Source of the DNA: Gemmatimonadales bacterium
Lineage (GTDB): Bacteria; Gemmatimonadota; Gemmatimonadetes; Gemmatimonadales; GWC2-71-9
Assembly: GCA_036556625.1 (NCBI GenBank)
Contig: DATBJC010000020.1
Coordinates: forward strand, 14,587-78,586
DNA: 64,000 bases
Direction: 5' to 3'
Shown here: positions 17,414 through 47,488 of the stretch, in pieces
Numbering within the stretch: the stretch's first letter is position 1
Layout: every line of letters begins with the position of its first letter
Position numbers and translations under genes: made by a program
Notes under the pieces: generated by a model
Databases searched by the model: none
Told to the model about the DNA's origin: nothing
The model's input: the letters and a program-made list of their open reading frames with translations, nothing else

Positions 17414-20400
17414 ATGCACTGCTTTTCGCGTATGAGAAGCGTTCTGGTACTCGGACTGGTGGCGCTCACCATGGGCGCGCTGGTTCCCAGCACGGCCGAA
17501 GCGAAGCCAAGGCCCGGCGTGAAGAAGGGGTTCCGGCTGTTCGCCAAGGCGATCGGGGCGATGACCATCAACCGGATCTACTGCGGCATTGCCTCGAACG
17601 GTCAGGTCTGCGTCGATTCCACCAACTCGCCCGTTGTCGGCGGCGGCTTCTGGCCCAAGGGCAGCCCGAACCAGTACGTGTTCAACTCGGGCATGCAGGT
17701 GGCGGGCATCATCGGTTCCGACGCCAATCCGGAGTGGGCCGGCGACACCACGGGCGGCCAGCTGTTCAGCCCCCGCGGTGACGACCACGGCGAAGAGATC
17801 CAGCCGGTCTTCAACGCCGCCGATCCGGCGGACGTGGCGGTATGGCCCCAGGCGGGGCTGGTGCCGTCCGGAGACGCCACCCAGGACCTGTTCTTCCCGG
17901 TGCTGCGGGGCCGGGTGTCCGCCTCCCAGGGCGACGTCTGGTTCGTGTCCTGGGAAGGCAATCCGGGGTTCGCCGCCGGGCGAGAGCACCCGCTCGGCAT
18001 CCTGGTCGAGCAGCGAGGCATGGGCTACAACTTCCCCTCCGGTAACCAGGACATCCTCTACTTCATCTACACCTTCTACAACGTCACCGCGAGCGATCCC
18101 GCGGTCTATGCGGCGATCCGCCCGGGCATGCGGGAGCTCGTCGCAGAGGCGGGCGCCCGGTTCCAGCAGCTCAACGAGGGCCGGTTCGCCGTCGACATTC
18201 CGGATGGCGGCTATACCGTCACCAACATGTTCGCCGCGTTCGGCGCCGACATGGACGTGGCTGCCGCCGGCTCCAACTACGCGTCGGTGAACGTGCCGTT
18301 TTCCCTGGGCTACACTTACGAGAACACCTTCGCCGGGACGCAAGACTGGCAGTTCGACCCCACTATCTTCGGTCCCCCGTTCTTCCCCGGCGCCGGCTTC
18401 GTCGGCGTGAAGTACCTGAAGAGCCCGGTGGTGGACGGCGTCGAAGTGGGTCTGACCCTGTTCAGCAACACCATCAACAGCGGCGCGTTCGACGACGCGC
18501 AGAACGCGGTCCAGCTCTACCGTTATTTGTCGAACAACATCAGCACCGCCGCGGGCGATGCGGCCTGCAATACCGGCAATCCGCAGCTCACCCGCATCTG
18601 CTTCGTCAACAACGTGGCCCCGGCCGACATGCGGTTCTTCCAGTCGTCCGGCCCGCTCGAGCTCGGTCCCGGCCAGTTCGGCTCGATTGCCGTGGCCTAC
18701 ATCTTCGCGGCGCCGGTGTCGGTCGGCGCCTGCGTCGGCCCCGGCACCTGTGACCTGACCCCGGGAGATCCCACCCGGCTGAGCGACGCCACGCTGCTCG
18801 CCAACGGCGCCAACCCGGTGGACTCCGTCGCCGGGTTCGCGGGATACGAGGACGCGAACAACGACGGGGTCGTGCAACAGGAGGAGATCGCGACGGTTCC
18901 CGGCTCGCTGCTCGACAAGGCCAAGGTGGCGCAGACCATCTTCAACAACCGCTTCCTGACGCCGGCCGCGCCGGAATCCCCGAGCTTCTTCCTCATCCCG
19001 GGCAACAACCAGGTCACGGTGCTCTGGAGCCCGAGCCCCACCGAGACGGCCGGTGACCCGTTCTTCCAGGTCGCGAGCGAGCCCTTGGTGGTCCCCGAGG
19101 GCGGCGGTGACCCGGTGCAGAACCCGCTGTTCGATCCGAACTTCCGTGAGTTCGACGTGGAGGGCTACCGAGTCTATCGCGGGCGGGTGGATTCCCCGAA
19201 CTCCCTCAGCCTGCTGGCCTCGTTCGACAAGACCGGCACCGTCATGCAGGACTTCACCAGCCAGGTGAACTCCAGCGACGCGTGCGCCCCCGAGCTCGGG
19301 ATCAACGCCCCCGTTGCCATTGACAGTGTCACCGACCCGCTTGCGCCCGACACGACCTTCGGCTGCCCGGTGGACTTCGACTCCCTGGTCCCCGGCGTCG
19401 CGCCGACCGTGTTCACGGAGATCCCGCTGGTCGGGCCGATCATTCAGGTGAAGCTCGGGCCGGGCGGTACTCCAGGCGCGCGTATCCAGCTCGCCAGCGG
19501 GACAACCATCAACACCGCGGCCGACACGGCGATCACCGGAGCCGAGAGCGGCTGCCTCCAGGCCGGCACCAGCGCGACCTGCGGCCTGGTGGACAACGGC
19601 GTGCCGTTCATCTTCGTCGATCCCACCGCGCGGAACAATCTGCGCTACTTCTACTCCGTGGTGGCGTTCGACATCAACTCGATCCAATCCGGTCCTTCGA
19701 GTATCGAGTCCTCCAGAGTCACCAAGGCAACGACCCCGGTGGCCGGTGCTTCCAACGTGCTGAGCGAGGCGACCTTCAGCCAGGCGATCGTCGGTCGCGG
19801 GGTGACGGTCAGCAACGACAGCACCCTGCCGACCATCGATGCCACGACCGGCCAATTCAGCGGCAAGATGCCGCCCAGCAACGCGGCCACCGCCGCGTTC
19901 GTGGGTGAGTTCGCCCGGGCCATCTTCAGCGGTCAGGGCAGCTTCGGCGCGACCCTGATCGGGCTGGGCATGGGCGACGCTCGTGGCGGCATTCCGACCA
20001 ACTACACCTTCGAGACCAGCGGTGGAGGGACGACCGATACGGTGTCGGTCCAGATCACGCAGACGTTGGATCTCACCGTGCCCACCGCGCAGAGCGGGCC
20101 ATTCCCGGCCGCGGAGGCGGACCCGGCATTGTCGGCCCGGTTCGGCATTCCACCTGGATTCATCCAGAGTGGTACCGTGACGCTGGGCCTGGCCAGCTAC
20201 CAGACCGCCTCGGGTTGGGGTCGGGGGTGCGTGATCGATGCCCTGTTCGGCGCCAACTGCAACTACAACGGCCCCCGCTGGTTCGCGGGAGACAACGAAA
20301 CCAAGGCTGATCCGAACGCCGGCAACGTCAACAGTCCTACCGGTGGCGCGGCCGACAACAACAACGCGGGCGAGCTGCCCGGTGTGCTCACCATTCAGAA

Positions 20401-21355
20401 CCCGCAATCGTATCATCAGACCAGCGGCAACCTGCGCGCCATCGAGGCCATCCTGGGCAGCGCGACCCGCGCGGCCGACTTCAACCTCTATTGGGGCGCG
20501 GGCGGGGTGGTCGATTCGGTCATCGACATCACCCACAACGTTCCGGTGCCGCGGCTCGACAGTCTGGGTGCCGGCTGGGGCTTCCTGACCACGGCCAATA
20601 CATCGGGCGCCGGGTCCAGCGATGGCGATCCCGGCACCGTCACCCTGGCCGACTTCGGCTGCGTATTCCCGCTGATCGATCCCAGCCGCCACGGGGATCA
20701 GATCTTCCCGTGCACGACACCATACGTGCTCAGCAACACCGCCGTGGCAGGCCCCATCGCGATCAGTGGCGATGAGAGCGTCTTCGCACCCAGACCGAAC
20801 CCCGGCTTCGCGCTCTACCTGGCCGGACACATCTTCCTCATGGAGCTGGCTCCCGGCGCTGGGCTTCCGGCGGCCGGTACGGTGTGGACCATGCGGAGCT
20901 ACATCGGCTGGATCAACGGCGGCAATGGCGCGGCGGGGGCGGAAGGACCCTACAGCTTCACACCGCAGGTCCGCAGCTTCTCGGCCCTGGGCGCCACCGT
21001 GGCGCTGAACTTCAACGCCACCAACGCGGTGCAGGCGCCGACCGCCACCAATCTGAGTCAGGTCCACACGGTACCTGACCCGTACTATGTGACCAGCGCC
21101 TTCGAGCAGACCACGGACGCCAAGATCATCAAGTTCGTGAACCTGCCCAACAAGGCGATCATCCGGATCTACTCGTCCAGCGGCGTGCTGGTGTCGCTGC
21201 TCGAGCACAACTCCACCACGTTCGGCGGAAGCGCCGACTGGAACGTCCGGAACCGCAACAACCAAGTCGTGGCCAGTGGCGTGTACTTCTACCACATCGA
21301 AGCGGGTGACGCCCGTCGCGTCGGCCGGTTCACCGTGGTGAACTTCGCGCAGTAG
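17414..21355 (+). CDS. 1313-aa secreted beta-rich protein of unknown function with FN3-like module and T9SS/FlgD-type C-terminal domain
   Basis: The signal peptide ends in 'STAEA'. An internal 'NNQVTVLWSPSP...DVEGYRVYRGR' is FN3-like. The last 97 aa, 'VPDPYY...IIRIYSSSGVLVSLL...WNVRNRNNQVVASGVYFYHIEAG...FTVV', follow the C-terminal sorting-domain pattern. I recognise no catalytic motif. Confidence 0.8.
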   Translation: MHCFSRMRSVLVLGLVALTMGALVPSTAEAKPRPGVKKGFRLFAKAIGAMTINRIYCGIASNGQVCVDSTNSPVVGGGFWPKGSPNQYVFNSGMQVAGIIGSDANPEWAGDTTGGQLFSPRGDDHGEEIQPVFNAADPADVAVWPQAGLVPSGDATQDLFFPVLRGRVSASQGDVWFVSWEGNPGFAAGREHPLGILVEQRGMGYNFPSGNQDILYFIYTFYNVTASDPAVYAAIRPGMRELVAEAGARFQQLNEGRFAVDIPDGGYTVTNMFAAFGADMDVAAAGSNYASVNVPFSLGYTYENTFAGTQDWQFDPTIFGPPFFPGAGFVGVKYLKSPVVDGVEVGLTLFSNTINSGAFDDAQNAVQLYRYLSNNISTAAGDAACNTGNPQLTRICFVNNVAPADMRFFQSSGPLELGPGQFGSIAVAYIFAAPVSVGACVGPGTCDLTPGDPTRLSDATLLANGANPVDSVAGFAGYEDANNDGVVQQEEIATVPGSLLDKAKVAQTIFNNRFLTPAAPESPSFFLIPGNNQVTVLWSPSPTETAGDPFFQVASEPLVVPEGGGDPVQNPLFDPNFREFDVEGYRVYRGRVDSPNSLSLLASFDKTGTVMQDFTSQVNSSDACAPELGINAPVAIDSVTDPLAPDTTFGCPVDFDSLVPGVAPTVFTEIPLVGPIIQVKLGPGGTPGARIQLASGTTINTAADTAITGAESGCLQAGTSATCGLVDNGVPFIFVDPTARNNLRYFYSVVAFDINSIQSGPSSIESSRVTKATTPVAGASNVLSEATFSQAIVGRGVTVSNDSTLPTIDATTGQFSGKMPPSNAATAAFVGEFARAIFSGQGSFGATLIGLGMGDARGGIPTNYTFETSGGGTTDTVSVQITQTLDLTVPTAQSGPFPAAEADPALSARFGIPPGFIQSGTVTLGLASYQTASGWGRGCVIDALFGANCNYNGPRWFAGDNETKADPNAGNVNSPTGGAADNNNAGELPGVLTIQNPQSYHQTSGNLRAIEAILGSATRAADFNLYWGAGGVVDSVIDITHNVPVPRLDSLGAGWGFLTTANTSGAGSSDGDPGTVTLADFGCVFPLIDPSRHGDQIFPCTTPYVLSNTAVAGPIAISGDESVFAPRPNPGFALYLAGHIFLMELAPGAGLPAAGTVWTMRSYIGWINGGNGAAGAEGPYSFTPQVRSFSALGATVALNFNATNAVQAPTATNLSQVHTVPDPYYVTSAFEQTTDAKIIKFVNLPNKAIIRIYSSSGVLVSLLEHNSTTFGGSADWNVRNRNNQVVASGVYFYHIEAGDARRVGRFTVVNFAQ

Positions 21356-21410
21356 TCGCCCACCGGGGGGGAGCGGGCACACCGCCCGCTCCTCCACAAC
21401 CAGGAGAAGG

Positions 21411-22532
21411 ATGAACATGCGATTTTCATTGGTTCCGAGCCTGGCAGTGGCTGCGACGCTGGTCGGCGGCCTTCCCTCGCTCGCGGCGGCCCAGGGGGAG
21501 GACAATACCCCCTATGGCACCACCTCGGCCGAGTTCCTGCTCTTCGGCGCCGGCGCCCGGGGCACCGCGCTGGGCGGCGCGTTCGTCGCCCTGGCCATGG
21601 ACGCCAGCGCGCTCTATTACAATCCCGCCGGCACGGCCCTGATGTCCCGGCCGGGCGCCACCATCAGTACCTACGATTACATCGCCGACACCAGGTACAG
21701 CTGGGGCGGCGTGGCCATTCCATTCTCGGACGGCACCCGGGCGGTCGGCCTCCAGGTCGGCACCTTCGGGTTCAAGGATCAGCCGGTGTACACCCCGCAG
21801 CAGCCGGACGGCACCGGATCGGTCTACTCGGTGAGCCAGACGGTCGCGGGCCTGACCTTCGCCCAGAACTTCTCCGACCGCTTCGCGGCCGGCATCACGG
21901 CCAAGGGCGTATTCGACAACCTGGGACAGGCCTCGGGCCGGGCGTTCGCGGTGGACTTCGGCACCAACTTCCACGCCCAGCTCAGCGGGCACCCCATCCG
22001 GTTCGCCTTCACCGTGACCAACCTGGGCAGCAACCTGTCGTACAGCGGCAACGCGCTGGAGATCGACGCGCCGCGGGACTCCATCCCCGGCGAGGATCCG
22101 GTGCCGGAGAACCCGCAGCCGGGTGAGTTCCGCACCAAGGACTTCGCGTTGCCCACCACGTTCCGGGTCGGTCTGGCGTACGACCTGCTCGCGGGCGAGA
22201 CCAGCCGGCTCACCATCCTCTCGGACTTCAACCAGCCCAACAACAACAGCGCCGGCTTCTCCGCCGGCGGCGAATGGATGTCGGAGCGGCTGGGCGGGTC
22301 CAACTTCGGGTTCGCGGTGCGGGGCAGCTACAGCTACGCCGCCGCCAACAACCTGGAGCCGCTGGATCCCAACGACACCGCGCTCAAGGACGAGGAGAAC
22401 CTCCAGGGCCTCTCCATCGGCGGAGGGCTCAACTACTCGTCGGAAGGATTCCTCCTGGGGTTCGATTATGCCTGGAGGTATCTGGGCGTTCTGGGAGGCA
22501 CCAACTTCTTTACCGTCAATCTGGGTTGGTAG
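21411..22532 (+). CDS. PorV/PorQ-like (FadL-type) outer-membrane beta-barrel
   Basis: The N-terminus 'GTTSAEFLLFGAGARGTALGGAFVALAMDASALYYNPAGTA' closely follows the conserved PorV/PorQ opening motif. The protein is 373 aa and beta-rich, ending in 'FFTVNLGW'. Confidence 0.7.
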   Translation: MNMRFSLVPSLAVAATLVGGLPSLAAAQGEDNTPYGTTSAEFLLFGAGARGTALGGAFVALAMDASALYYNPAGTALMSRPGATISTYDYIADTRYSWGGVAIPFSDGTRAVGLQVGTFGFKDQPVYTPQQPDGTGSVYSVSQTVAGLTFAQNFSDRFAAGITAKGVFDNLGQASGRAFAVDFGTNFHAQLSGHPIRFAFTVTNLGSNLSYSGNALEIDAPRDSIPGEDPVPENPQPGEFRTKDFALPTTFRVGLAYDLLAGETSRLTILSDFNQPNNNSAGFSAGGEWMSERLGGSNFGFAVRGSYSYAAANNLEPLDPNDTALKDEENLQGLSIGGGLNYSSEGFLLGFDYAWRYLGVLGGTNFFTVNLGW

Positions 22533-22553
22533 CAGAGCGGATTCAGGAAGACC

Positions 22554-24002
22554 ATGCATAGCGTGTTGAAGTGGTCGTTCGCCGCGGCGCTGGCGGGCTT
22601 GCCGGTGGCCGCGGCGGCGATGCAATCGGATCCGGAGTTGGTGCTCCGCGCGGTGCGGTTCTATCGCGCGGAGCAGGACCTCACCCGAGTCAAGGGCATC
22701 GTCCAGATTCCCTACGCGCTGGTGCAGCGGACCGGCGAGGGCAGCGCGTACACCGTGTCCGTCCGGGTGGCGGATGCCACCGGGCTCACGCTCTACCAGC
22801 AGTCGTGGCAGTCCAAGGTCGCGGCCGGGCCGGCACCGGAGGACGCCTACGCGGTGGAGATCGTGGATTTCACGGTGGCACCGGGGACCTACAAGCTGGA
22901 GGTGGCGGTCGGCGATTCGGCCAGCGGCAAGCAGGTGAGCCAGACGGTGAGCCTGGAGGCGCTGGGCAAGGCGGCCAAGGTGTCCGACCTGCTGGCGTCT
23001 CCCGCCATTCGAGTGGCGGCGGCCAACGACACCGTGCCCAAGCCCGGAGAGTTTCGGGCCGGCAACAATCTGGTGACCGCCGCGGCGCGCGTCTTTCTCA
23101 CGCCGCTCCGGTCTCACGTGTATTACCTGATGGAGGCCTATTCCCCGGCGGAGCAGAAGGGGAAGATGGGTGTCTCCATCAACGACTCCGCGGGTAAGGC
23201 GATCGTGCAGACTCCCCCGCTCGAAGTCACGGTGGCGCCGGGCGGCAGCATGCTGAAGGGCCAGCTGGACCTGACCGGGCTCCCGCCGGGTGACTACACC
23301 ATGACCTCCAGGCTGGAGCTGGGGGGTGAGACCATCGAGCGGTCGGCGCCTATCACCATGGCCCCGATCACCCAGACCCTGGTGCGCGACTCGGCCGCAC
23401 GGCAGGACGCCAGGATCACCGACGAGGGGTACTTCGCGGCCATGTCGGTGGAGGAGCTGGATCAGGCCAAGGAGCCGCTGGCATACGTCGCCCGGAGCCG
23501 GGAGCTCTCCAGCTGGGACAAGAGCATGAGTGCCGGCGTCAAGCGAAAGTTCCTGACCGAGTTCTGGAAGAAGCGGGACCCGACGCCCGACACGCCGCGC
23601 AACGAGCGGCGGGAGCAGTTCTACCAGGCGATCGCCTACGCGGACAAGCACTACCGGGAGCCCGGCCGCCGCGCGCCGGACGGCTGGCGGACTGACCGCG
23701 GCCGGATCTTCGCCAAGAACGGCACGCCGGACGACGTGCTCCAGCGGCCCGAGGAAGCGTACGGCGCGGCCTTTGAGGTCTGGAAGTACACCCGGGGCAA
23801 GGCGCGCTACTACATCTTCGCCGACCGGACCGGGTTCGGCGGGTTCCAGTTGATCTACTCGAACGACGTCTCCGAGCCGAAGATTCCCGCCTGGGGCGCC
23901 GTGCTGAGCCGCCGCGGTCTGGCGGAGGCCGGCACTTTCCTGGGTGTGGACCTGTTCAGCGTAGTTCGGTCCGAGGACGCCGGCAATATCCAGCGGTTCT
24001 GA
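22554..24002 (+). CDS. GWxTD-domain protein
   Basis: The C-terminal 'FWKKRDP...REQFYQAIAYADKHY...DGWRTDRGRIF...GTPDDV' contains the eponymous GWxTD motif (GWRTD). The N-terminal half looks like two beta-sandwich modules. Confidence 0.75.
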   Translation: MHSVLKWSFAAALAGLPVAAAAMQSDPELVLRAVRFYRAEQDLTRVKGIVQIPYALVQRTGEGSAYTVSVRVADATGLTLYQQSWQSKVAAGPAPEDAYAVEIVDFTVAPGTYKLEVAVGDSASGKQVSQTVSLEALGKAAKVSDLLASPAIRVAAANDTVPKPGEFRAGNNLVTAAARVFLTPLRSHVYYLMEAYSPAEQKGKMGVSINDSAGKAIVQTPPLEVTVAPGGSMLKGQLDLTGLPPGDYTMTSRLELGGETIERSAPITMAPITQTLVRDSAARQDARITDEGYFAAMSVEELDQAKEPLAYVARSRELSSWDKSMSAGVKRKFLTEFWKKRDPTPDTPRNERREQFYQAIAYADKHYREPGRRAPDGWRTDRGRIFAKNGTPDDVLQRPEEAYGAAFEVWKYTRGKARYYIFADRTGFGGFQLIYSNDVSEPKIPAWGAVLSRRGLAEAGTFLGVDLFSVVRSEDAGNIQRF

Positions 24003-24050
24003 CGGCGACGGATCGAATATCTCACAGCTCTCCGCCATGAGGGGTTCACT

Positions 24051-33916: not shown

Positions 33917-35002
33917 CTACGTCCTCACCCTGATCAACAGCACCACTCCAGCAATCGCGAACACGATGTTGGGGATCCACGCCGCCAGGTCGGGATTGAC
34001 GACCCCGCCTGCTCCCACCGCCTTCATGATCTGGGTGAGCAGCAGGAAGATCACTGTAGTGCCGAGGCTGATGGCGATGCCGACCGCGGCCCCGGCGCGC
34101 GGGGAGGTGACTGCGAGCGGTGCCCCGAAGAGTGCGATGATGAAGCAGGTGACCGGGATCGCCACCTTGAGCGTGCGCTCGACCATCAGCTTGTTGGCGT
34201 CGTTGCCCGAGCGCTTCAGCGCGTCGACGTAGCGGCCCAGCTCGGCGTAGCGCATCTCGTCCGGCGCCTTCGATTCGGCCAGCAGGTCGGCGGGCGACTG
34301 GGTCAGCGCGCGAAGGCGCATGCTCCTGAACGAGAACATCGCCTGCCGTCCGGGGCCGGCGATGACCCGGCTGGCCCCGTTTCGCACCCGCCAGGAGCTG
34401 AGGGAATCGTCCCAGCTGGCGCTGTCGGCGGTGATCACCAGGTCCGGGTAGTCGAGCCCGGTCCCCTGGCGCTCGAACATCAGATGCTTCAGCTGCCGGT
34501 TGGCCACGTCGAGGGAGCGGATGGTGTACACCCAGCCCACGTCACCCCGGTACACGAAGTTGTAGCGAGTCCTGGTGGGCCGCGCCGCCTTGGCCTTCTG
34601 CAGCTCGAGCTGCTTGGCGGTGGCGCCGGGCGCGAGCTCCCCGACCACGAACGCCAGCCCCGACGCGGCCGCCGCGGCCACGAACAGCGGCAGCATCAGC
34701 CGGTGGAAGCTCTGGCCTCCAGCCTTGGCCGCCGTCAGCTCGGAGTGACGGCCCATGGCCCCTACGGTGAACACGGTGGCGAAGAGCACCGCCGCCGGCA
34801 TCACCAGGAACATGTTCTCCGGGACCGAGTAGACGTAGCTCCACGCGATCTCCCGGGTGGTGAGCCCGCGGTCGAGCAGCCGGTTCAGGGTATCGGTCAG
34901 ATTGATCAGGATGGATACGATCGGAAACCCGAGCGCGGTCAGGACGAAGATCCGGATCCAGCTCCCCAGAACGTAGCGGTCCAACGTGCTCATCGCCTTC
35001 AT
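33917..35002 (-). CDS. lptG: LptF/LptG-family LPS export permease
   Basis: YjgP/YjgQ architecture, with the N-terminal 'LDRYVLGSWIRIFVLTALGF', a periplasmic beta-jellyroll and C-terminal TM helices. There is an ATGA overlap with the upstream paralogue. Confidence 0.78.
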   Translation of the reverse strand: MKAMSTLDRYVLGSWIRIFVLTALGFPIVSILINLTDTLNRLLDRGLTTREIAWSYVYSVPENMFLVMPAAVLFATVFTVGAMGRHSELTAAKAGGQSFHRLMLPLFVAAAAASGLAFVVGELAPGATAKQLELQKAKAARPTRTRYNFVYRGDVGWVYTIRSLDVANRQLKHLMFERQGTGLDYPDLVITADSASWDDSLSSWRVRNGASRVIAGPGRQAMFSFRSMRLRALTQSPADLLAESKAPDEMRYAELGRYVDALKRSGNDANKLMVERTLKVAIPVTCFIIALFGAPLAVTSPRAGAAVGIAISLGTTVIFLLLTQIMKAVGAGGVVNPDLAAWIPNIVFAIAGVVLLIRVRT

Positions 35003-36603
35003 GCGGACGGCCTCACCGGGAAGGACCGGTGCCTGATCCGCCGCCAGAGATGGCGGATCGCGTCCACCACCTCCTGGAAGTCACCGCCGCGGGTGGAGCC
35101 CGACTCGCGGCTCACCCGGATCAGACCGAGCACGCCCACGATGGTGAGGATGATGTTGGGCGACCACATGGCCTGCCACGGTGTCACGAATCCGCGATCC
35201 GCCAGGCTCTCCCCGGCCGTGAGCCCCACATAGTGGACCGAGAAGACCAGGAGTCCACCGCCGATCACCAGCCCGATCCCGCCCCTGGGGAACCGGAGGG
35301 CCATCACGATCCCGATGATGACGAAGGAGATGCAGGCGAGGCTGATGGCCCACTTCTTATGGACCTCGACGGCGTACCGGGCCGCCCGCCGATCCGCGTC
35401 CCGGCCCCGGTCCAGGGCCGTCGCGGTGAGCGACCAGTTCGAAAGCTCCGGTTCCCGGAGTCCTGGACTACGAGGGCTGGGTACCGGGGGGCGCAGGGTC
35501 GGCGCTCCGGCCGGCTTCGTCTTCGGAGGCCTGACGATCCGGCCCTTGCCCTGTCCCGGCGCGCCGGCCTGTGCTCGACCCTGGGCGGGGGCGGCCTGTG
35601 CTCGTCCCTGGGCTTCGGCCGTCCTGGGAAGAACCAGACTCTGGAGCGACTGGAGCCAGCGGCAATAGGCCGGCGTCGCCTTGGCGGTCAGCGACGTATC
35701 AGCCATACCCCGTGGAGGGAGCGCCAGGAGGTTGCGAAGATCGCTCACGATCAGCTCGTGGCGGTCCCGGGCCGACTCGTGCTCCTCGCGTTCGGCATCC
35801 CGGATCACCTCGAGCATCTCGCAGGTGCTCATCTCGCGGTCGCCCCGAACCGCCTCGCTGGTGTTCCGCTCCAGCTCGTCGAAGACGTTCTTCACCCGGA
35901 TGTCGTTGACCTTGAAGTACGTCAACTGGAACCCGGTGGGCTCCACCGGTCGGTACTGGTGAATGCTCCCGTTGAACAGGCGGAGACTCAGATCGGTCTG
36001 GCCTTCGGCATAGCCCATCAGCCCGCTGTCGGCGTAGATGATCCGGCGGCTCGCGTCCCCGCCGACATCGTAGATGGTGACCTCCCGGAGGCGCCCGGTG
36101 GCGCCGTCGATCCGATTGGCGCGGAGGAAGTATTGGGAGGGCGGAACCTCATTGATCACCTGCTCCTGAAGCTCGAAGGTGGGCTTTTTCCGGCCGATGT
36201 CGATCAGCAGGGTTCTCAACCGGGCATTGCTCCGGGGCAGGATCTGATCCACGAAGGCAAAGTTGAAGGCCGACATGAACACGCCCCAGGCCAACACCGG
36301 GAGCAGGATCTGGTACACGCTGACCCCGCTGGCCCGCATCGCCGTGATCTCGTTGTCGGCCGCCAGGTGGCTGAAGGCATAGAGCACGGCCAGGAGCACC
36401 GCCATCGGGAGGGTCATCGCCACGATGAACGGGATGCTCAGGGCGAAGACCTCCACGATCACCGTCCAGGGGAGGCCTTTGCCCACCAGCGACCCGAACT
36501 TCTTCGCGATCTGGCTCAACAGCATCAGGCTGGTGAGCGCGGTGAGCGCGAAGAGGAAGGGGGCCGCCAGTTGGCGGAGCAGGTAGCGACTGAGCAGGTT
36601 CAC
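34999..36603 (-). CDS. lptF: LptF/LptG-family LPS export permease with about 130-aa low-complexity insertion
   Basis: 'LLSRYLLRQLAAPFLFALTAL' is the family N-terminus. The insert contains an Ala/Gln/Pro/Arg-rich tract encoded partly by a 27-nt direct repeat. Confidence 0.78.
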   Translation of the reverse strand: MNLLSRYLLRQLAAPFLFALTALTSLMLLSQIAKKFGSLVGKGLPWTVIVEVFALSIPFIVAMTLPMAVLLAVLYAFSHLAADNEITAMRASGVSVYQILLPVLAWGVFMSAFNFAFVDQILPRSNARLRTLLIDIGRKKPTFELQEQVINEVPPSQYFLRANRIDGATGRLREVTIYDVGGDASRRIIYADSGLMGYAEGQTDLSLRLFNGSIHQYRPVEPTGFQLTYFKVNDIRVKNVFDELERNTSEAVRGDREMSTCEMLEVIRDAEREEHESARDRHELIVSDLRNLLALPPRGMADTSLTAKATPAYCRWLQSLQSLVLPRTAEAQGRAQAAPAQGRAQAGAPGQGKGRIVRPPKTKPAGAPTLRPPVPSPRSPGLREPELSNWSLTATALDRGRDADRRAARYAVEVHKKWAISLACISFVIIGIVMALRFPRGGIGLVIGGGLLVFSVHYVGLTAGESLADRGFVTPWQAMWSPNIILTIVGVLGLIRVSRESGSTRGGDFQEVVDAIRHLWRRIRHRSFPVRPSA

Positions 36604-36621: not shown

Positions 36622-36649
36622 TTGTAAGGAGTTGTTAGCTTATTATATT
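36622..36649 (+). promoter_or_regulatory. Sigma-70-like promoter candidate for the sprA-like gene
   Basis: TTGTAA (36622-36627), a 16-nt spacer, then TATATT (36644-36649). It sits in the only strongly AT-rich stretch of the lptF/sprA divergent gap. Confidence 0.35.
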
Positions 36650-36694: not shown

Positions 36695-39600
36695 GTGGCG
36701 CGCCCTCTTCTCACTCTAAGCTGGCTGTGCCTGCTGGTCACGGCTCCCCTGGCCGGCCAGACCCCGACAACCGCCGATACGACCGGGCCGGGCTCTCGCC
36801 TTCGATTCCTGACCAGCCCGTTTCGTCTGGCCGAGCCGGCCGCGCTGCGCGCGCCCTGGCTGGGGGCCCCGCGGTTGGGTCCGACCGGGGCGGCGGAGCG
36901 TTGGGACAGCCTCCTGGCCACCTCGCTGCAAGTCACCCGCCAGGAGCGGGCCCTGGGATACCGGATGCTCAACCTCTACGGAACGGCTCCGGTGCCGGTG
37001 GAGCAGGTCGCGACGGCAGAGGAGGACGAGCAGCGTCGGGGGCTGTTCGGGATCGCCCGCGACAAGGCCGACATCAACATGGACGGCCAGGTCCGGCTCG
37101 AGTTCCGCACCGACCGCCTGCGCAACGAGCGATGCAGTCCCGCGCTGCTGCTGGATCCCAATTCCGGTTGCCGGGGTGGCTTCAGGCCGCCCCGCCTGGA
37201 CAACCAGGTGAATCTCCGGGCCGGCGGCGTGCTGGGCCGACGGGTCCACCTCAACGTGGACTACGACTCGGAGCGGGACTTCGTCGCCAACAACGATGTG
37301 CAGGTGTACTACGAAGGGTTGGAAGACGAGATCATCCGCCGGATCGAGGTCGGCACCGTCCAGTTCCAGCCCCCACCCTCGCGATTCATCACCGCCGCCA
37401 TCCCCACCAACAACTTCGGCGTCAACGCGACCTTCGAGGTGGGGCGGGTGCAGCTCCAGACTCTGGCCGCCACCCAGAAGGGGAGCCAGGTGGCGGAGCG
37501 GGTGTACCAGATCGGCCAGACCACCAGCCAGCCACAGACCAAGCAGGTCCGGGACCTCGACTTCGAAACAGGCCGGTTCTTCTGGGTGGTGGATCCCACC
37601 GGGGTTCCAGGCTTTCCCGACCTCGACATCCTGAACCTGGATCCCACGGTGCTGCCGGCGAACCTGCGACCCGACCAGGTCCGGGTCTACCGCTATCGCG
37701 CCGCGCTCAACCAGTCCAACTCGCAGGCCAACCTGGCGGGCATCCGGGCACTGGCCCGCAGCAGCAACGGGGTCCAGACCTACGGCCCGGTGCGGTGGGA
37801 GCTGCTGATCCAGGGCACCGATTACCACCTGGACCCCTCGGGGCTCTGGCTCGCGCTCGGCACCAAGCTGGACCAGAACGACTTCCTCGCGGTCAGCTAC
37901 ATCGCCGACGACGGCTCGCTGGTGGGGAGCTTTCCCTCTCAGGATCGGCCCGAGGCGGGAGACAGCCTGCGGCTGATCGTGGCGCCGCAGCAGGACCCGT
38001 CCCAGGTCACCTTCAACCACGAGATGCGGCAGATCTACCGGGTGGCGGGATCCGATCTGGACCCGGCGTCGCTCGAGGTTCGTCTCTCGGTCAACCAGTC
38101 GGAGCGGCCGCTGTCGGGAGGCACCACCTATCTCGCCGCCCTGCGGCTGGCGATCCCGACCGACCCCAACATCTTCGACCGGGAGAACCGGCTCTTCCCC
38201 CGGGCGCAGGAGCCGCAGGCGGGGACGGTGCTCAACGAGTCGTACATCATTTATCCCCACCTGCGGCCTTTCGCCGATTCCACCCGGCTCACCCCGGCGG
38301 AACGGAACGACTCGCTGTACCAGAAGCCCCTCTTCCTGCTGAACCAGGGGCCGGCGGCGAAGTTTCAGCTGCGGCTCCACTACAACAGCACCGGCGGAGG
38401 CGACCGGTCCAGCCTGGCACTCGGCGCGTTCCAGCTGCGCAAGGGAAGCGAGCAGGTGTTGCTGGGAGGGCGCCGGCTCGAGCGCGACGTGGACTACACC
38501 ATCTCCTACGAGTCGGGGCAGGTCACCTTTCTCAATCCGGAGTCGTTGTTCGGTACCGGTGCGGCTCAGGTCACCGTGCGGTTCGAGGAGCAGGGCATTT
38601 TCGCGATCGCGCCCACCTCGATCTTCGGGCTTTCGACCCGCTATTCATTGGGTAATGTCGGCTCGGTCAACTTCATCGGCATGTACCAGAAGGAGTCCAG
38701 CGCCTTCAACCGGCCGCCGCTCGGGTTCGAGGCCACCGCGAATCTGATCACCGGCATCAACACCGATCTCAAGTTCCGCTCGGACGGATTGAGCCGGCTC
38801 CTCAGCGGGCTCACCAGCCGGCCCGCCGTTGCTCCCTCCCAGATCAACCTCAACGCCGAATTCGCCCTGACCAAGCCGGACCCCAACCGGTCGGGGCAGG
38901 CCTACATGGAGGAGTTCGAGAGCGAGGCGGGCGTGCCCCTCTCACTGGCGGAAGCCGCCTGGGAGTTCGGCAGCGGACCGGGCAGCCCGCTGGGCGCGGA
39001 GAGCTTCGGCTTTGCCGGCGGGTTCCTCCCGGACGACGCGGTGGCGCTCACCTGGCAGAACCTGGTGCCGGTCGGGAACACCGGTCAGGCGCTGGAGATC
39101 CGCCCGGAGGACATCGACACCCTGATCCGCATCGTGGGCCGGGGCGAGCGTCTGGAGACCACGCTCTTCATGACCCTGCACGCCGACACCGCGGGAGGCG
39201 TGGTCCAGCGCAACAATGCCTCGCGCTGGAGCCTGCCCCGGCGCGACTTCCGTCCCCGGTGGCGCTCGATGGTCACGCCGCTCAGCACCACGGGCATCGA
39301 TCTCACCCGGGACGAGTACCTCGAGTTCTGGGTGTTTCACCCCGCGGGCCGGAGCTCCGACTCGGCCGGGGTGCGGCTGATCTTCGACCTCGGCACGGTG
39401 GACGAAGACGCGGTGGGCGTGGCACCCGAGAGCCTGACCGTGGCGGGCAGCGATACCAGCTACACCGGGCGCCAGCTGATCGGCACCGGCCTGCTCGACA
39501 CCGAGCGGAGCGACCTGGACATCTTCAACGCCGAAGTGGACGACATCGGGATCCTGGGCGACAGGCCGCCCAGGATGATCCGCTCGGACGGGGCTGTGGT

Positions 39601-42600
39601 CGGCGACCTGGCGCTCTGCGAGCGCTTCCTGAGCAACGCGGTGCCGGTGTTTCCCTGGGGCGACCTCAGCGGTCGCTGCACCAACGGCAACGGGATTCTC
39701 GACACCGAGGATCTGGACGCGGACAACGTGCTCAATGCCAAGGGCGCCAACGAGAACGTCTTCCGCTACGTGGTCCAGCTTCGCCCGGAAGACCAGCACT
39801 TCGTGCGAACCGGTCAGGGCCTCATGCCCGGCTGGGAGCTGTATCGGGTCCCCATCCGCACCCCGGACGCCACCATCGGCACGCCCAATCTCCGGCTGAT
39901 TCAGCATCTGCGGGTCACGGTGGCGGCGCCGGCCGACGCCGGCGGCCCGGACCCGGTCGCCCGGTTCGCGCTGGCCCGCATGCGGCTGGTCGGTTCCTCC
40001 TGGACCCGCCGGGCGGAACGGCCGATCGCCGGTCTTGCCGGATCGGTGGCCAACCCCATCGGCGATGTCATCGCCTCGGTAGTCTCCACCGAGAACAGCG
40101 CCGACCTGGGGTACGAGTCCCCTCCCGGCGTGGTCGAAGCCGTGCAGCGGCGAGACGGCGACCAGGAATCGTTCGGCACCCAGATCAACGAGAAGTCACT
40201 CCGCATCGTCGCCCGGGGCCTGGAAACGGGCGACCGGGCCGAGGCGTTCCTCCGCTTTCCGGTGACTCCGCAGAACGCGCTGAGCTACCGCCAGCTCAGG
40301 GTCTGGATGCGGGGCCGCGGGCCCGGCTGGGAGGAGAACGATCTCCAGGCCTTCCTCAAGGTGGGCAGCGACGACCGCAACTTCTACCTGTACCGGGCAC
40401 CCGCCCGCTCCCGGACCTGGGAGCCGGAATTCGTCATCGATCTGGAGGTGTGGCGCGCGCTCCGGGCCCGGCTGGAACAGCAGCGACTGAGCGGACCGCC
40501 GGTGGTGGATCCGGCCTGCGGGGTGCCCGATCCGAATGTCTACGTGACCTGCCGGGGTCCCTATCTGGTGTACAGCGCCGACCCCGGAGTCAACCCTCCG
40601 AACCTGGCGGCGATTCAGGAGCTTTCCGCGGGCATCCTGCGGGTCGCGTCGTCGGTCGTCATTACGGACGCCGAGCTCTGGGTGGACGATATCCGGCTCA
40701 GCAACCCGGTGTCCGAGCTGGGCACCGCGATGGCGGTGGACGCGCGAATCGTCGCCAGCGACGTGGGCAACATGTTCGTGTCCTACACCCGGCAGAACGG
40801 CCAGTTCCGCCAGATCAACGAGGACCCCAGCTACCGCGGCACCGGTGCCTTGCAGGTCACGTCCGGCTGGCAGCTCGATCGGTTCCTCCCCACCTGGCTG
40901 GGCCTCTCCATTCCGCTCAACGTGAATTACACTCGCGCGAACGTGGATCCGGAGCTGCTCACCGGCACCGATGTGAGGGGCGACGCCCTGCCCGGCTTGC
41001 GACGACCGAGCTCGAGCACCCAGAACTACACCCTCGCGATCCGCCGGAGTCAGAAGGGCACCGATTTTCTCACCAAGGCGTTGGCCGATCCGCTGTCGCT
41101 TCGAGCCAACCTGGTCAAGGGACGGACCCGGAGCGAGTTCAGCGACGCCACCTCCGACGCGCGCTCGGTCGCCCTGGGCTACAACCTCCAGATGCAGCGG
41201 CGGGGCATCGGGCTGCCCTTCGGCGGCCTGGTGGGCGGTCTGCCGGACTGGATCAAGAACAGCAGCGCAGGCAAGGGACTGAGCTCGGCAAAGTTCAGCC
41301 TGGTCCCTTCGAGCCTGCGGCTGAGCAGCGGGCTCAGCCGGAACGAAGCCGCCTACTTCTCCTTCGGCGTGCCGATCGCCCGGCCGGCGGACTCGCTGGT
41401 GCGGTCCACCCTCTCGCTCACCCACCTGTGGCAGAACTCGGCCGGCATGACGTACCAGCCGCTGGGGATGCTGTCGGTGAACGTGGACCTCAACAGCACG
41501 CGCGACCTGCGGGTCTACCCCGATTCCAGCCCTCTGGGCCGGCTGGCGTTTGCCGAGCGGAAGCTCTTTCTGGGTATCCCCGTCGGCGTGGAGCGCGACC
41601 GCAACCTGACCACTTCGCTGGCCCTCACTCCGGCCATCAACTCCTGGCTGCGGCCCCGGTTCACCACGGGGAGCGGATTCATTCTCTCCCGGACGCTCAA
41701 CAGCCGCTCGCCGGTCCGCGAGTTCGAGGACAGCGGCGCGTTCATCCTCCCGCAGACGCTCAACAACCGACGGACCCGCGAGCTGGGCCTCTCGGTGGAT
41801 CTGGGCCGCGCGTTCCAGCAGCTGTTCAACGACAGCAGCACGGTGGGCAAGGCGCTGTCGCGCTTCCGGCCGGTGGACCTCAGCTCCGGCCTCACCCGCA
41901 CCTCGACCTACAATCTCGCCGCCTTCGACCCGGGCCTGAAGTACATGCTGGGCCTGGGCGGCCGCGAGAGCTTCCTCTTTCAGGAGCGATCCACCGCGGT
42001 GAATGCGTCGGAGACCCGCACCGCGACGATCGGATCGGGCGCTGACCTACCCTTCGGATTCTCCACCACGATGTCGTACTCGCTCACTCGGACGGAGACC
42101 TTCCGCCTGGTCGGGGACGGCTTCGCCGAGACCGTGCTGCGGCAGCGGGAGTGGCCGTCGGCGACGGTCCGATGGAACCGGGTATTCACCAAAGGCCCGC
42201 TGGTGACCGTGAGCGCCGCCTTCGGGGTCCGCCGCCGGGAGGGCACCTCTCAGCAGCTCAGTGCCGGGGGCGAGGGGCTGGGCGCCGCCAGCGCCACCGT
42301 CTCGTACTCGCTCACGCCGGACCTCCAGTTGACCCTCCGCAACGGGATGAGCTTCTCGACCGGACTCTCCAGTCGCGACCAGCGGACCGAGACCAACGGG
42401 AACGCGACCCTGCTGGATCAGGACGACATCACCGGCACCTTCAGCTACGCCTTCCGGCTGCCCACCTCCATCAGCCGCACCCGCAAGCTGATCCGCTCCT
42501 CGGTGACGGTCTTCAGCTCCAGCGTCCGCACCTGCCTGCTGACGGTGCGCGACCCGGAGTGCGAGACCGTATCCGACCTCCGCCGGCGGGAGATCCAGAG

Positions 42601-42751
42601 CGGGATCGACACCGACCTGATGCAGATGCTGACCGCGGGCCTCCAGTTCGGCTACTCGATCAACGACGTGCGTCACCTGGACGGACGCACGTCGCAGATC
42701 TTCCTCCAGCTGTCGTTCCAGCTGTCGCTGTTCGCGGAAGATTACCGGTGA
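36695..42751 (+). CDS. sprA: SprA-like giant outer-membrane protein (T9SS translocon family)
   Basis: 2018 aa from GTG 36695, which gives the signal peptide MARPLLTLSWLCLLVTAPLAG|Q. 'VNLRAGGVLGRRVHLNVDYDSERDF...QVYYEGLEDEIIRRIEVGTVQF' matches my memory of the conserved SprA block (...YTGxEDEIIQKIEAGNVS...). It is beta-rich throughout. Confidence 0.65.
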   Translation: MARPLLTLSWLCLLVTAPLAGQTPTTADTTGPGSRLRFLTSPFRLAEPAALRAPWLGAPRLGPTGAAERWDSLLATSLQVTRQERALGYRMLNLYGTAPVPVEQVATAEEDEQRRGLFGIARDKADINMDGQVRLEFRTDRLRNERCSPALLLDPNSGCRGGFRPPRLDNQVNLRAGGVLGRRVHLNVDYDSERDFVANNDVQVYYEGLEDEIIRRIEVGTVQFQPPPSRFITAAIPTNNFGVNATFEVGRVQLQTLAATQKGSQVAERVYQIGQTTSQPQTKQVRDLDFETGRFFWVVDPTGVPGFPDLDILNLDPTVLPANLRPDQVRVYRYRAALNQSNSQANLAGIRALARSSNGVQTYGPVRWELLIQGTDYHLDPSGLWLALGTKLDQNDFLAVSYIADDGSLVGSFPSQDRPEAGDSLRLIVAPQQDPSQVTFNHEMRQIYRVAGSDLDPASLEVRLSVNQSERPLSGGTTYLAALRLAIPTDPNIFDRENRLFPRAQEPQAGTVLNESYIIYPHLRPFADSTRLTPAERNDSLYQKPLFLLNQGPAAKFQLRLHYNSTGGGDRSSLALGAFQLRKGSEQVLLGGRRLERDVDYTISYESGQVTFLNPESLFGTGAAQVTVRFEEQGIFAIAPTSIFGLSTRYSLGNVGSVNFIGMYQKESSAFNRPPLGFEATANLITGINTDLKFRSDGLSRLLSGLTSRPAVAPSQINLNAEFALTKPDPNRSGQAYMEEFESEAGVPLSLAEAAWEFGSGPGSPLGAESFGFAGGFLPDDAVALTWQNLVPVGNTGQALEIRPEDIDTLIRIVGRGERLETTLFMTLHADTAGGVVQRNNASRWSLPRRDFRPRWRSMVTPLSTTGIDLTRDEYLEFWVFHPAGRSSDSAGVRLIFDLGTVDEDAVGVAPESLTVAGSDTSYTGRQLIGTGLLDTERSDLDIFNAEVDDIGILGDRPPRMIRSDGAVVGDLALCERFLSNAVPVFPWGDLSGRCTNGNGILDTEDLDADNVLNAKGANENVFRYVVQLRPEDQHFVRTGQGLMPGWELYRVPIRTPDATIGTPNLRLIQHLRVTVAAPADAGGPDPVARFALARMRLVGSSWTRRAERPIAGLAGSVANPIGDVIASVVSTENSADLGYESPPGVVEAVQRRDGDQESFGTQINEKSLRIVARGLETGDRAEAFLRFPVTPQNALSYRQLRVWMRGRGPGWEENDLQAFLKVGSDDRNFYLYRAPARSRTWEPEFVIDLEVWRALRARLEQQRLSGPPVVDPACGVPDPNVYVTCRGPYLVYSADPGVNPPNLAAIQELSAGILRVASSVVITDAELWVDDIRLSNPVSELGTAMAVDARIVASDVGNMFVSYTRQNGQFRQINEDPSYRGTGALQVTSGWQLDRFLPTWLGLSIPLNVNYTRANVDPELLTGTDVRGDALPGLRRPSSSTQNYTLAIRRSQKGTDFLTKALADPLSLRANLVKGRTRSEFSDATSDARSVALGYNLQMQRRGIGLPFGGLVGGLPDWIKNSSAGKGLSSAKFSLVPSSLRLSSGLSRNEAAYFSFGVPIARPADSLVRSTLSLTHLWQNSAGMTYQPLGMLSVNVDLNSTRDLRVYPDSSPLGRLAFAERKLFLGIPVGVERDRNLTTSLALTPAINSWLRPRFTTGSGFILSRTLNSRSPVREFEDSGAFILPQTLNNRRTRELGLSVDLGRAFQQLFNDSSTVGKALSRFRPVDLSSGLTRTSTYNLAAFDPGLKYMLGLGGRESFLFQERSTAVNASETRTATIGSGADLPFGFSTTMSYSLTRTETFRLVGDGFAETVLRQREWPSATVRWNRVFTKGPLVTVSAAFGVRRREGTSQQLSAGGEGLGAASATVSYSLTPDLQLTLRNGMSFSTGLSSRDQRTETNGNATLLDQDDITGTFSYAFRLPTSISRTRKLIRSSVTVFSSSVRTCLLTVRDPECETVSDLRRREIQSGIDTDLMQMLTAGLQFGYSINDVRHLDGRTSQIFLQLSFQLSLFAEDYR

Positions 42752-42816: not shown

Positions 42817-43725
42817 TTGCGTCGCTTTCTCCTGATCCTCTCCCTCGCCGCGCTGAATGCCTGCGGCGACAAGCCGCCGCCCCGGGAGTTCGACGGGACG
42901 TCGGCCTTCAAGTACCTCGAGCAGCAGCTGACCTTCGGGTACCGGATACCGGGCACCGATGAGCACCGCCGGATGGCGGCGTGGCTCGACAGCATGGTGC
43001 GGGCGCGGGTCGACTCGGTGATCACCCAGCGCTGGACTCACGTCACCGCCGAGGGTGACTCGCTGGATCTCCAGAATGTCATCGCTCGCATCAACCCGGC
43101 TGCGGAGAAGCGGATCCTTTTTTTGGCCCACTGGGACACCAGGCCGGTCACCGACGGCAAGCAGTCTCCCGACTCGACCAAGAAGGTCATGGGGGCCAAC
43201 GATGGGGCCTCCGGCGTGGCGCTGTTGCTGGGCGTGGCCGATGTGCTCAAGCGGGCGCCGCCCGGGCCGGACGTCGGGGTGGACCTGCTCTTCACCGACG
43301 GCGAAGACTACGGCGATTTCGACAAGGTCATCGATGTCCTGATCGGTGCCCGCTACTACGCCCAGCACCAGCCGCCGGGGCCGAAGCCGCTCTACGCCGT
43401 GCTCTTCGATCTGGTCGCGGACAAGGATCTGCAGATCTACCAGGAGGGCAACTCGGTGACCGGCGCGCCGGAGGTAGTGAACCTGGTGTGGGACGTAGCG
43501 CGAGATCTGGGGTACGGAAAGATCTTCGTAGATACGCCGGGGTACGTGCTGATCGACGATCACGTGGAGCTGCAGAAGGGAGGGATCCGCGCCATCGACG
43601 TGGTGGACTTCAACTATCCCCCCCATCACACGCCGTTCGATACCATCGACAAGGTGAGCGCCCAGAGTCTTCAGATCGTGGGTGACGTCGCGATGGCCCT
43701 GGTGCGGCGCGAGGGTACCACCTAG
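42817..43725 (+). CDS. M28-fold lipoprotein, glutaminyl-peptide cyclotransferase-like
   Basis: The lipobox is 'LAALNACG'. The blocks 'FLAHWDTRP', 'GANDGASGVALLL', 'LLFTDGEDYG', 'IDDHVEL' and 'HHTPFDTIDKVS' parallel the Bacteroidota animal-type QC pattern (AHWDSRP / GANDGASG / DDH / WHT..D). Confidence 0.68.
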   Translation: MRRFLLILSLAALNACGDKPPPREFDGTSAFKYLEQQLTFGYRIPGTDEHRRMAAWLDSMVRARVDSVITQRWTHVTAEGDSLDLQNVIARINPAAEKRILFLAHWDTRPVTDGKQSPDSTKKVMGANDGASGVALLLGVADVLKRAPPGPDVGVDLLFTDGEDYGDFDKVIDVLIGARYYAQHQPPGPKPLYAVLFDLVADKDLQIYQEGNSVTGAPEVVNLVWDVARDLGYGKIFVDTPGYVLIDDHVELQKGGIRAIDVVDFNYPPHHTPFDTIDKVSAQSLQIVGDVAMALVRREGTT

Positions 43726-43809
43726 CCGGAACCGTCCCGCCGGCGGAATCGCACCGGCCCGCGGGAAACCGCTGCGCGGCGGATTCAGCCAGTGCGTTAC
43801 CCTCGGGTC

Positions 43810-44481
43810 ATGTCGGCCACCGAGCGACGCGCCCTCCTGCTCCTGCTCTCCCTCGGGCTTGCCGGCCAGGGCATCCGGTGGTGGGCCACCCGGCCGGGAG
43901 AGGCGCCGGGGCAGATCGAGCTGCTGGCGGCACTCCCTCCCAAGTCTCCGGCGGCCCATCGCGACAGCATCCTCGCCCTGGCCCGGCCTCTCGCGCCCGG
44001 CGAGCGTATCGATGCCGACCAGGCTACGCCGGCCGAGCTGGCTCGGCTCCCGCGGGTCGGCCTGGCGCTTGCCAAGACCATCGTCGCGGATCGTGAGGCC
44101 CGAGGACCGTTCGGCGGCCCTGAGGGGCTCGATCGGGTACGGGGCATCGGGCCCGGACTCCTGGCCGCCATCGGGCCCCACCTGAGGTTCTCCGGCCCCA
44201 AGGGAGTGCCAGCATCCGGGCAGTTCGCCCGACCCGGTGCCGACTTGGCCGGGGGGCCGACTCCCTCCCGGGCAGGCACCACCCCTCCCCCCGTAAATCT
44301 CAATTCGGCGTCGGTTTCCGAGCTGGACCGGCTTCCGGGAATCGGCCCGGCGCGCGCGGCGGCGATTTTGCAGGAGCGCGAAGCCCGGGGGCCGTTTGCG
44401 TCGGTCGAAGCCTTGTCCCGTGTTCCCGGGCTGGGGCAGTCGGCCATCGCCCGGCTGCGCGATCAGGTGGTGGTCGAATGA
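43810..44481 (+). CDS. comEA: ComEA-like helix-hairpin-helix DNA-binding protein (two HhH modules)
   Basis: It has an N-terminal TM anchor. 'ELARLPRVGLALAKTIVADREARGPF' and 'ELDRLPGIGPARAAAILQEREARGPFASVEAL' are duplicated ComEA-type HhH motifs. Confidence 0.75.
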   Translation: MSATERRALLLLLSLGLAGQGIRWWATRPGEAPGQIELLAALPPKSPAAHRDSILALARPLAPGERIDADQATPAELARLPRVGLALAKTIVADREARGPFGGPEGLDRVRGIGPGLLAAIGPHLRFSGPKGVPASGQFARPGADLAGGPTPSRAGTTPPPVNLNSASVSELDRLPGIGPARAAAILQEREARGPFASVEALSRVPGLGQSAIARLRDQVVVE

Positions 44482-44560
44482 GGGGCGGGCGGCCTGTCGT
44501 CGCCCAGCCCGGCTACCGATACTGGCCCAATTAACCCAACACTTCTCCAGCCACGAGATC

Positions 44561-47415: not shown

Positions 47416-47488
47416 CCCGCCGCTCCGCACAGCACCGCCCGGCGGAGTGGAGCAGTGGGGTGGGTCCGTCTTTCTAGGAGATCACCGA

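Follow-up and report, generated by a model that had tools for sequence, protein, structure and literature searches.

A stretch of 64,000 nucleotides from a Gemmatimonadales bacterium (contig DATBJC010000020.1 of assembly GCA_036556625.1, positions 14,587 to 78,586 of the forward strand), hereafter the window and numbered from its first letter, contains a gene, sprA, for a protein of 2018 residues. To judge by its sequence, this protein is a homologue of the SprA-type translocon of type IX secretion, from outside Bacteroidota. By the same measure it is a shorter form of SprA that is specific to its phylum, and its gene is followed by that of a putative glutaminyl cyclase. It likely acts as the outer-membrane translocon of a type IX secretion system (T9SS).

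Sequence similarity to SprA

The open reading frame (ORF) at positions 36695–42751 had originally been predicted, from the letters of the DNA, to encode an SprA-like translocon, and a search with the SprA-family hidden Markov model had been proposed as a check. The match is significant: the protein scores 501.4 bits with the NCBIfam equivalog TIGR04189 (SprA/Sov), for which the cutoff is 200, with an E-value of 5.9e-150. A match of 58 bits is obtained with the Pfam family SprA_N. The extent of the similarity along this Bacteroidota-based profile, given in Table 1, was obtained by scanning the protein against TIGR04189 in four pieces. With phmmer, the SprA protein of Flavobacterium johnsoniae (PDB entry 6h3i) is found with an E-value of 1.5e-26, and the alignment includes an amino-terminal block, QVYYEGLEDEIIRRIEVGTVQF, which pairs with residues ~206–227 of the F. 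johnsoniae protein, 'YTPSEDDIIQKVEVGNVSM'. In this block, YTPSEDDIIQKVEVGNVS of F. johnsoniae is aligned to LEDEIIRRIEVGTVQF of the window protein, which bears out the use that had been made of it as a mark of the SprA family. An outer-membrane protein of more than 2000 residues preceded by a Sec signal peptide is likewise present, with 2018 residues, an amino-terminus of VARPLLTLSWLCLLVTAPLAG followed by Q, and residues 1–21 that look Sec-type by eye, as had been proposed. The placement of the gene outside Bacteroidota also stands, as the best named homologues are all from Gemmatimonadales or Gemmatimonadota.

When started at the GTG codon at 36695, the protein is 100% identical to, and equal in length with, a public protein (P0001, listed by JGI as 'hypothetical protein'). 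In an index of assemblies, no exact match to the protein was obtained, whichever of two start codons was used. The GTG start is favoured over an alternative TTG codon at 36632 because a promoter-like site (36622–36649) overlaps the latter. A second promoter-like site faces the opposite way, towards lptF, and the two sites found compare with 0.4 expected in shuffled sequences. The amino-terminus reads VARPLLTLSWLCLLVTAPLAG followed by QTPT, and cleavage is predicted after LAG, which would make Gln22 (nucleotide 36758) the first residue of the mature protein. Signal peptides, in this and in all other loci, were called by eye from the sequence.

The carboxy-terminal region and the predicted fold

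The last 418 residues were compared exhaustively with 1.84 billion cluster representatives, and only 281 relatives were found at E ≤ 1e-3. The full-length proteins among them are 2028–2217 residues long, and those with a name are all SprA proteins of Gemmatimonadota. Therefore, the phylum appears to have its own shorter SprA, with a diverged carboxy-terminal quarter. On this sequence evidence, Gemmatimonadota SprA is a phylum-specific form of about 2020–2220 residues, as against about 2400, whose last ~400 residues have diverged so far that their sequence is no longer recognisable.

An AlphaFold2 model of residues 819–2018, calculated from a 47-sequence alignment, has a mean predicted local distance difference test score (pLDDT) of 68.9, and its last 700 residues form ~26 long strands in succession; the carboxy-terminal segment of 418 residues is modelled as long consecutive strands as well. 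When this model is compared with the PDB by Foldseek, the SprA entries 8gl6, 8gl8, 6h3i and 6h3j rank first, with E-values of 1e-32 to 1e-26, and the runner-up after the SprA chains is the 26-strand MtrB, with an E-value of 1.6e-5. The TM-score against the SprA chains reaches only 0.41, which is what an open fragment of a barrel would be expected to give. For the carboxy-terminal 1200 residues, the predicted fold is SprA-like. SprA of the known kind is a single capped barrel of 36 strands with a lateral opening, and this model of part of the protein does not contradict the giant barrel that had been foreseen.

Distribution among Gemmatimonadota

The protein has 755 relatives at E ≤ 1e-10, and the best 120 of these 755 are full length and 60–100% identical. 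Named homologues of 60–82% identity are called 'cell surface protein SprA' or 'T9SS outer membrane translocon Sov/SprA [Gemmatimonadales bacterium]' by NCBI. As far as the sequences go, sprA is intact and conserved throughout Gemmatimonadota, in a conserved neighbourhood. The family has also been noted in the phylum by others. SprA has been described as specific to the FCB group (Fibrobacterota-Chlorobiota-Bacteroidota and allied phyla) and as lacking only in Chlorobiota, in a survey whose genomes included that of Gemmatimonas aurantiaca (Liu et al. 2025, PMC12611786), and a list of phyla in which a T9SS may exist includes Gemmatimonadetes (Mizgalska et al. 2024, PMC11285876). Since SprA of Gemmatimonadota had thus been both annotated and noted before, its finding here has little novelty, which the original prediction overstated.

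The sprA-glutaminyl cyclase gene pair and amino-terminal glutamine

The gene that begins 65 nucleotides 3' of sprA encodes a lipoprotein of the M28 fold, which by similarity and lipoprotein signal is a putative glutaminyl cyclase of the animal type. It matches the solved glutaminyl cyclases of Tannerella forsythia (PDB entry 6qro, E 5e-46) and Porphyromonas gingivalis (PDB entry 6qql, E 7e-44) as well as Pfam M28, and its lipobox reads LNAC. A terminator-like site was looked for between sprA and the cyclase gene, and none was found; because the gap is short and has no such site, the two genes are probably co-transcribed. In related loci the cyclase gene is found at 16193–17113 (L002), at 16495–17415 (L168), where its start overlaps the sprA stop by 4 nucleotides, and at 16515–17459 (L169). 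The gene order lptG-lptF, sprA, cyclase persists even where the SprA of Gemmatimonadota is only 33–34% identical to that of the window.

On the other side of sprA lie genes for two permeases of lipopolysaccharide (LPS) export, similar to lptG and lptF and matching Pfam LptF_LptG. Their divergent arrangement with sprA is kept in L001–L003, L168 and L169, and the translocon gene sits in an outer-membrane biogenesis neighbourhood. In L168 and L169, mlaE and mlaD are located just past lptG and lptF. The LptF-like permease has 534 residues, of which two stretches match the LptF_LptG profile; its middle is a low-complexity stretch rich in proline, alanine and glycine (…AQGRAQAAPAQGRAQAGAPGQGKG…PPVPSPRSPG), and its orthologues are likewise long, with 500–585 residues.

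Glutamine directly follows the predicted cleavage site of SprA in all five lineages compared. The Gemmatimonadota loci compared (the window, L167, L168 and L169 included) encode predicted substrates of signal peptidase I from nine unrelated families, and eight of these families appear by eye to start with glutamine, SprA being entered as one family. Besides SprA, the eight comprise the PorV-like barrel, two TonB-dependent receptors, a CarboxypepD_reg protein, an M13 peptidase, a BNR/sortilin protein and a GWxTD protein, and the sole exception is a 1313-residue protein with a carboxy-terminal domain (CTD). The cases in the window are the products of the genes at 36695 (Gln22 at 36758), 21411, 13973 and 22554. 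Linkage of the cyclase gene to sov or sprA is not known from Bacteroidota. The 'Q-rule' of amino-terminal glutamine has been described for Bacteroidetes and a patchy set of other organisms, and its co-occurrence with type IX secretion has been noted; Gemmatimonadetes are not mentioned there (Bochtler 2018, PMC5837995). Because the gene pair is conserved, proteins that start with glutamine are common and the Q-rule co-occurs with type IX secretion, the fixed sprA-cyclase pair suggests, as new and modest evidence from genomic context, a link between the Q-rule and SprA.

Candidate carrier and cargo

The window contains an outer-membrane barrel of the PorV/PorQ family, which had been recognised in the original prediction as PorV-like and which scores 138.7 bits with the family model NF033709 (cutoff 90). 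Its homologues of 72–91% identity are named 'PorV/PorQ family protein [Gemmatimonadales bacterium]', and in one relative a single contig of 1.07 Mb carries both this gene and sprA. No match to solved PorV was obtained with phmmer. An AlphaFold2 model has 14 predicted strands, with a pLDDT of 33 that makes it unreliable. Since barrels of the PorV-like kind (UPF0164) are also known from phyla that lack type IX secretion, belonging to the family is in itself no proof of a role as carrier.

Directly before this gene, a secreted protein of 1313 residues and of no recognised fold is encoded, the candidate for the one CTD cargo that had been proposed. The assignment is marginal by score, as given below, and orthologous fragments are named 'T9SS type A sorting domain-containing protein' by NCBI. 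The CTD also matches the PorZ model, in its carboxy-terminal part only (E 3.8e-7), and to the eye its pattern is typical (KFVNLP..IRIYSSSG..ASGVYFYHIE). When the protein is compared with its orthologue in L167, the last 95 residues, which form the CTD, are 92% identical, as against 55% for the rest, and the 400 residues preceding the CTD are only 26–39% identical. Such constraint fits a domain that would be read by a conserved machinery. A second copy of the CTD was not found in the window, and a search with the CTD alone for further cargo families gave nothing but short carboxy-terminal pieces of the same orthologue. For the body of the protein, no relative was recognised in Pfam, nor in the PDB with a single sequence or a three-sequence profile. 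In many Bacteroidota PorU is encoded upstream of porV; an identity of the 1313-residue protein with PorU is unsupported, as these same searches and NCBIfam gave no PorU or C25 peptidase signal.

Both genes belong to a conserved cluster 14 kb upstream of sprA, which encodes, in this order, an ECF (extracytoplasmic function) sigma factor, a zf-HC2 anti-sigma factor, a 209-residue protein without recognised family, the TonB-dependent-receptor-like protein, the CTD protein, the PorV-like barrel, the GWxTD-domain protein (TIGR04514, 88.5 bits) and a lipoprotein. The gene arrangement of sprA and its surroundings, this cluster included, is syntenic in relatives whose SprA is 67% identical. The layout of the cluster recalls outer-membrane uptake loci under sigma/anti-sigma control.

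Motor, ring and attachment genes

In F. johnsoniae, sprA and gldKLMN are far apart, and so are sov and porKLMN in P. gingivalis. Four type IX components are modelled as chromosomal loners by TXSScan, and sprA is present in 0 of 162 loci with a gldM motif (about 8 kb each and 1.26 Mb in all, for the most part gldM loci of Bacteroidota). Because type IX genes are scattered in this way, the absence of porKLMN beside sprA is uninformative, and the weight that had originally been given to it falls away.

Two scans for GldM were performed with a conserved motif from the GldM/PorM amino-terminus; the GldM and GldL amino-termini used agree with PDB entry 6ys8. In the first, a genome collection was scanned for R-Q-[KR]-M-[IV]-N-x-M-Y in GC-ending codons, which gave at least 120 matches; among the matches listed, the organism-labelled records are all Bacteroidota but for a few. 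In the second, metagenome contigs were scanned with a looser GldM motif and 20 flanking NNS codons. True GldM was found, among 42 matches, only on contigs with a GC content of 0.51–0.65. Those of GC 0.62–0.65 carry gldL-gldM-gldN at full Bacteroidota scores and are Flavobacteriales by cluster names, and those of GC 0.51–0.60 are taken, from their sequences, as Prevotella-like Bacteroidota. One Flavobacteriales-type locus (L136, positions 513–8413, on metagenome contig Ga0138256_10000209, GC 0.63) contains gldL, gldM and two adjacent gldN-like ORFs, with a second full-length gldM paralogue (278 bits) past an ABC-F gene.

Proposed function and alternative explanations

On family membership and predicted fold, we consider it likely that the window protein is the outer-membrane SprA translocon of type IX secretion, with a mechanism by analogy with that described for Flavobacterium johnsoniae (PMC10994853). 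SprA would be exported by Sec, and its signal peptide would be cut to leave an amino-terminal glutamine, which the cyclase encoded just 3' of sprA may turn into pyroglutamate. BAM, which is the machinery for beta-barrel assembly, would then insert the protein in the outer membrane. Proteins with a CTD would enter the SprA barrel from the periplasm and bind to the loops of the PorV-like carrier, and the complex of carrier and cargo would leave sideways, with its drive from a proton-powered motor whose genes would lie elsewhere in the genome.

Several observations weigh against this. Whole-length homology to Bacteroidota SprA was not found: the sequence match ends at residue ~1613, and residues 1601–2018 match neither TIGR04189 nor, by sequence, any PDB entry. 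In an annotation of the 64 kb in which almost all likely genes were covered, none matches GldK/L/M/N, PorU, PorZ, PorP/SprF, SprE or SprT, and no PorQ attachment gene is present, so that motor, ring and attachment genes are lacking among the window-mates of sprA, as the original prediction had it. Of the two GC-biased scans, the first listed almost solely Bacteroidota, and in the second no GldM-motif match fell on Gemmatimonadales-like contigs (GC ≥ 0.66), a weak negative because an exact seven-residue motif and GC-ending codons would miss a GldM that had diverged to the degree of this SprA. The PorV-like protein lies far below the equivalog cutoffs (41.7 against 250 for PorV and 65 against 220 for PorQ), and the CTD, with 20.5 bits for TIGR04183, just misses the cutoff of 23. 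In the literature searched, type IX secretion in Gemmatimonadota is mentioned only in passing and no experimental work was found; the literature evidence found for type IX secretion in Fibrobacter is likewise indirect.

Such gaps could also point to a reduced or differently powered system, in which SprA, a PorV/Q-like carrier and CTD cargo are kept, the canonical GldLM/GldKN are lost, and export is passive or driven, for instance, by TonB/Tol-type energy. A window without motor or ring genes, the outcome of the metagenome scan, the divergent short form of SprA itself and a PorV-like protein that is not a PorV equivalog all agree with it. We nevertheless regard it as unlikely, since the stringency of both scans means that a diverged GldM would have been missed, the scan of the genome collection was saturated by Bacteroidota, type IX genes are scattered as a rule, and in Bacteroidota SprA needs the motor for substrate release (PMC10994853). 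Decidedly unlikely is a distinct Gemmatimonadota variant of type IX secretion that would combine a short SprA with a phylum-specific carboxy-terminal barrel segment, a PorV/Q-like carrier distinct from both PorV and PorQ, the lack of a canonical GldLM-type motor, and coupling of translocon and cyclase in an operon; if it existed, the formation of amino-terminal pyroglutamate under the Q-rule would be functionally tied to SprA-type outer membranes, beyond co-occurrence. That the protein serves envelope biogenesis and not secretion, as a housekeeping protein of the outer membrane with ties to the transport of LPS or lipids and to amino-terminal pyroglutamylation, is very improbable. Its family and fold indicate a translocon, and both a gene of the PorV family and a CTD under strong constraint have been conserved close by. 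The place of sprA beside lptF/lptG phylum-wide, with mlaE/mlaD added in two lineages, its apparent operon with the cyclase gene and the single CTD protein seen do favour such a role, but gene neighbourhood is by itself weak evidence of function. Finally, the window has a GC content of 64–74%, and long spurious ORFs are frequent in it, several of them overlapping sprA in other frames, as would suit a chance ORF or a decaying relic. Either is practically inconceivable: the GC content by codon position in the sprA ORF (0.65/0.49/0.90) is typical of genuine genes in the window, and full-length orthologues are found intact by the hundred, at identities as low as 33%. By these two lines a chance ORF and a pseudogene are both rejected, and the strong TIGR04189 match stands against them as well.

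Nearly all studies of type IX secretion concern Bacteroidota, and three features seen here could guide its study in Gemmatimonadota, a phylum abundant in soil. A shorter SprA with a divergent carboxy-terminal quarter would help to define the essential parts of the 36-strand barrel. A compact conserved region unites candidate cargo, candidate carrier and translocon, and the sprA-cyclase pair, together with the proteins that start with glutamine, offers a testable link between two features that so far only co-occur in Bacteroidota.

Other genes of the window

The features described are collected in Table 1. Beyond lptF and lptG, the upstream part contains nadB-nadA-nadC, an amino-acid permease, a ctaA-ctaB fusion and an ABC exporter. 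In the fusion (27044–28957, minus strand, 637 residues), CtaA/COX15 (haem A synthase) is joined to CtaB/UbiA (haem O synthase); close relatives have the same fusion, and in the distant lineage L168 (1–1651) ctaA and ctaB are separate genes. On the 3' side of the cyclase gene, a ComEA-like helix-hairpin-helix protein is encoded, followed by pilB (MshEN and T2SSE), pilT and pilC (43792–48691, plus strand), and this type IV pilus/competence block is found there in all relatives examined. The rtcB gene (49184–50402, plus strand) seems to be split over two frames near 49900, with the amino-terminal part in the frame of 49184 and RtcB profile positions 292–424 in the frame 49896–50402; by its sequence it is either a frameshifted pseudogene or the result of an assembly error.

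Table 1. Positions of sprA, its parts and the associated genes in the window.
Feature	Position	Strand	Remarks
sprA ORF	36632/36695..42751	+	GTG start at 36695 gives 2018 residues
Predicted Sec signal peptide, SprA residues 1–21	36695..36757	+	read by eye from the sequence
SprA stretch matching the Bacteroidota-based profile	37190..41533	+	residues ~166–1613, profile positions 131–1720 of 2319
Conserved amino-terminal SprA block, residues 203–224	37301..37366	+	aligned with F. johnsoniae SprA
Carboxy-terminal ~418 residues of SprA, beta-strand-rich, Gemmatimonadota-specific	41495..42748	+	
Promoter-like site TTGTAA-16-TATATT, 5' of the sprA GTG	36622..36649	+	consensus match only
Promoter-like site for lptF, divergent from sprA	36670-36642	-	consensus match only
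lptG-like (33917-35002) and lptF-like (34999-36603) LPS-export permeases	33917..36603	-	Pfam LptF_LptG; divergent from sprA
M28-fold lipoprotein, homologue of Bacteroidota (animal-type) glutaminyl cyclases	42817..43725	+	PDB, Pfam M28, lipobox
Conserved cluster upstream of sprA	12032-25079		
TonB-dependent-receptor-like protein, 1119 residues (CarboxypepD_reg and Plug)	13973..17332	+	synteny in L167
Secreted protein of 1313 residues, candidate cargo	17414..21355	+	type-A-like CTD at 21068-21352
PorV/PorQ-family outer-membrane barrel, candidate carrier	21411..22532	+	NF033709
GWxTD-domain protein, directly after the PorV-like gene	22554..24002	+	TIGR04514; same place in L167
Lipoprotein without family, last in the cluster	24051-25079		

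Comparison with known systems

The window SprA shares its hidden Markov model family with F. johnsoniae SprA (PDB entries 6H3I, 6H3J, 8GL6 and 8GL8) and P. gingivalis Sov, and resembles both in being a giant beta-rich outer-membrane protein with a signal peptide, as predicted here, but comes from another phylum. The amino-terminal block EDxII..VE.G.V of F. johnsoniae SprA is found in it too, and the same protein is the best structural match for the modelled carboxy-terminal 1200 residues. The window protein is ~385 residues shorter (2018 versus 2403). Of the partners of SprA in Bacteroidota, PPI, Plug, SkpA and SprE were not identified for it, and the candidate carrier passes the family model that it shares with Bacteroidota PorV (LptO) and PorQ, though not their equivalogs. 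The gene 3' of sprA encodes a lipoprotein homologue of the cyclases PgQC, TfQC and PiQC (PDB entries 6QQL and 6QRO), with its E-value of 5e-46 to TfQC, and the start with glutamine known from the Bacteroidota Q-rule recurs, as read by eye, in eight of the nine predicted secreted families of these Gemmatimonadota loci. The closest known proteins are the Gemmatimonadota SprA proteins named by NCBI (for example MDQ8167224.1 and MGQ0766502.1), orthologues of 24–82% identity in the same length class of 2020–2220 residues, which have the carboxy-terminal segment and the gene neighbourhood of the window SprA and show no substantive difference from it.

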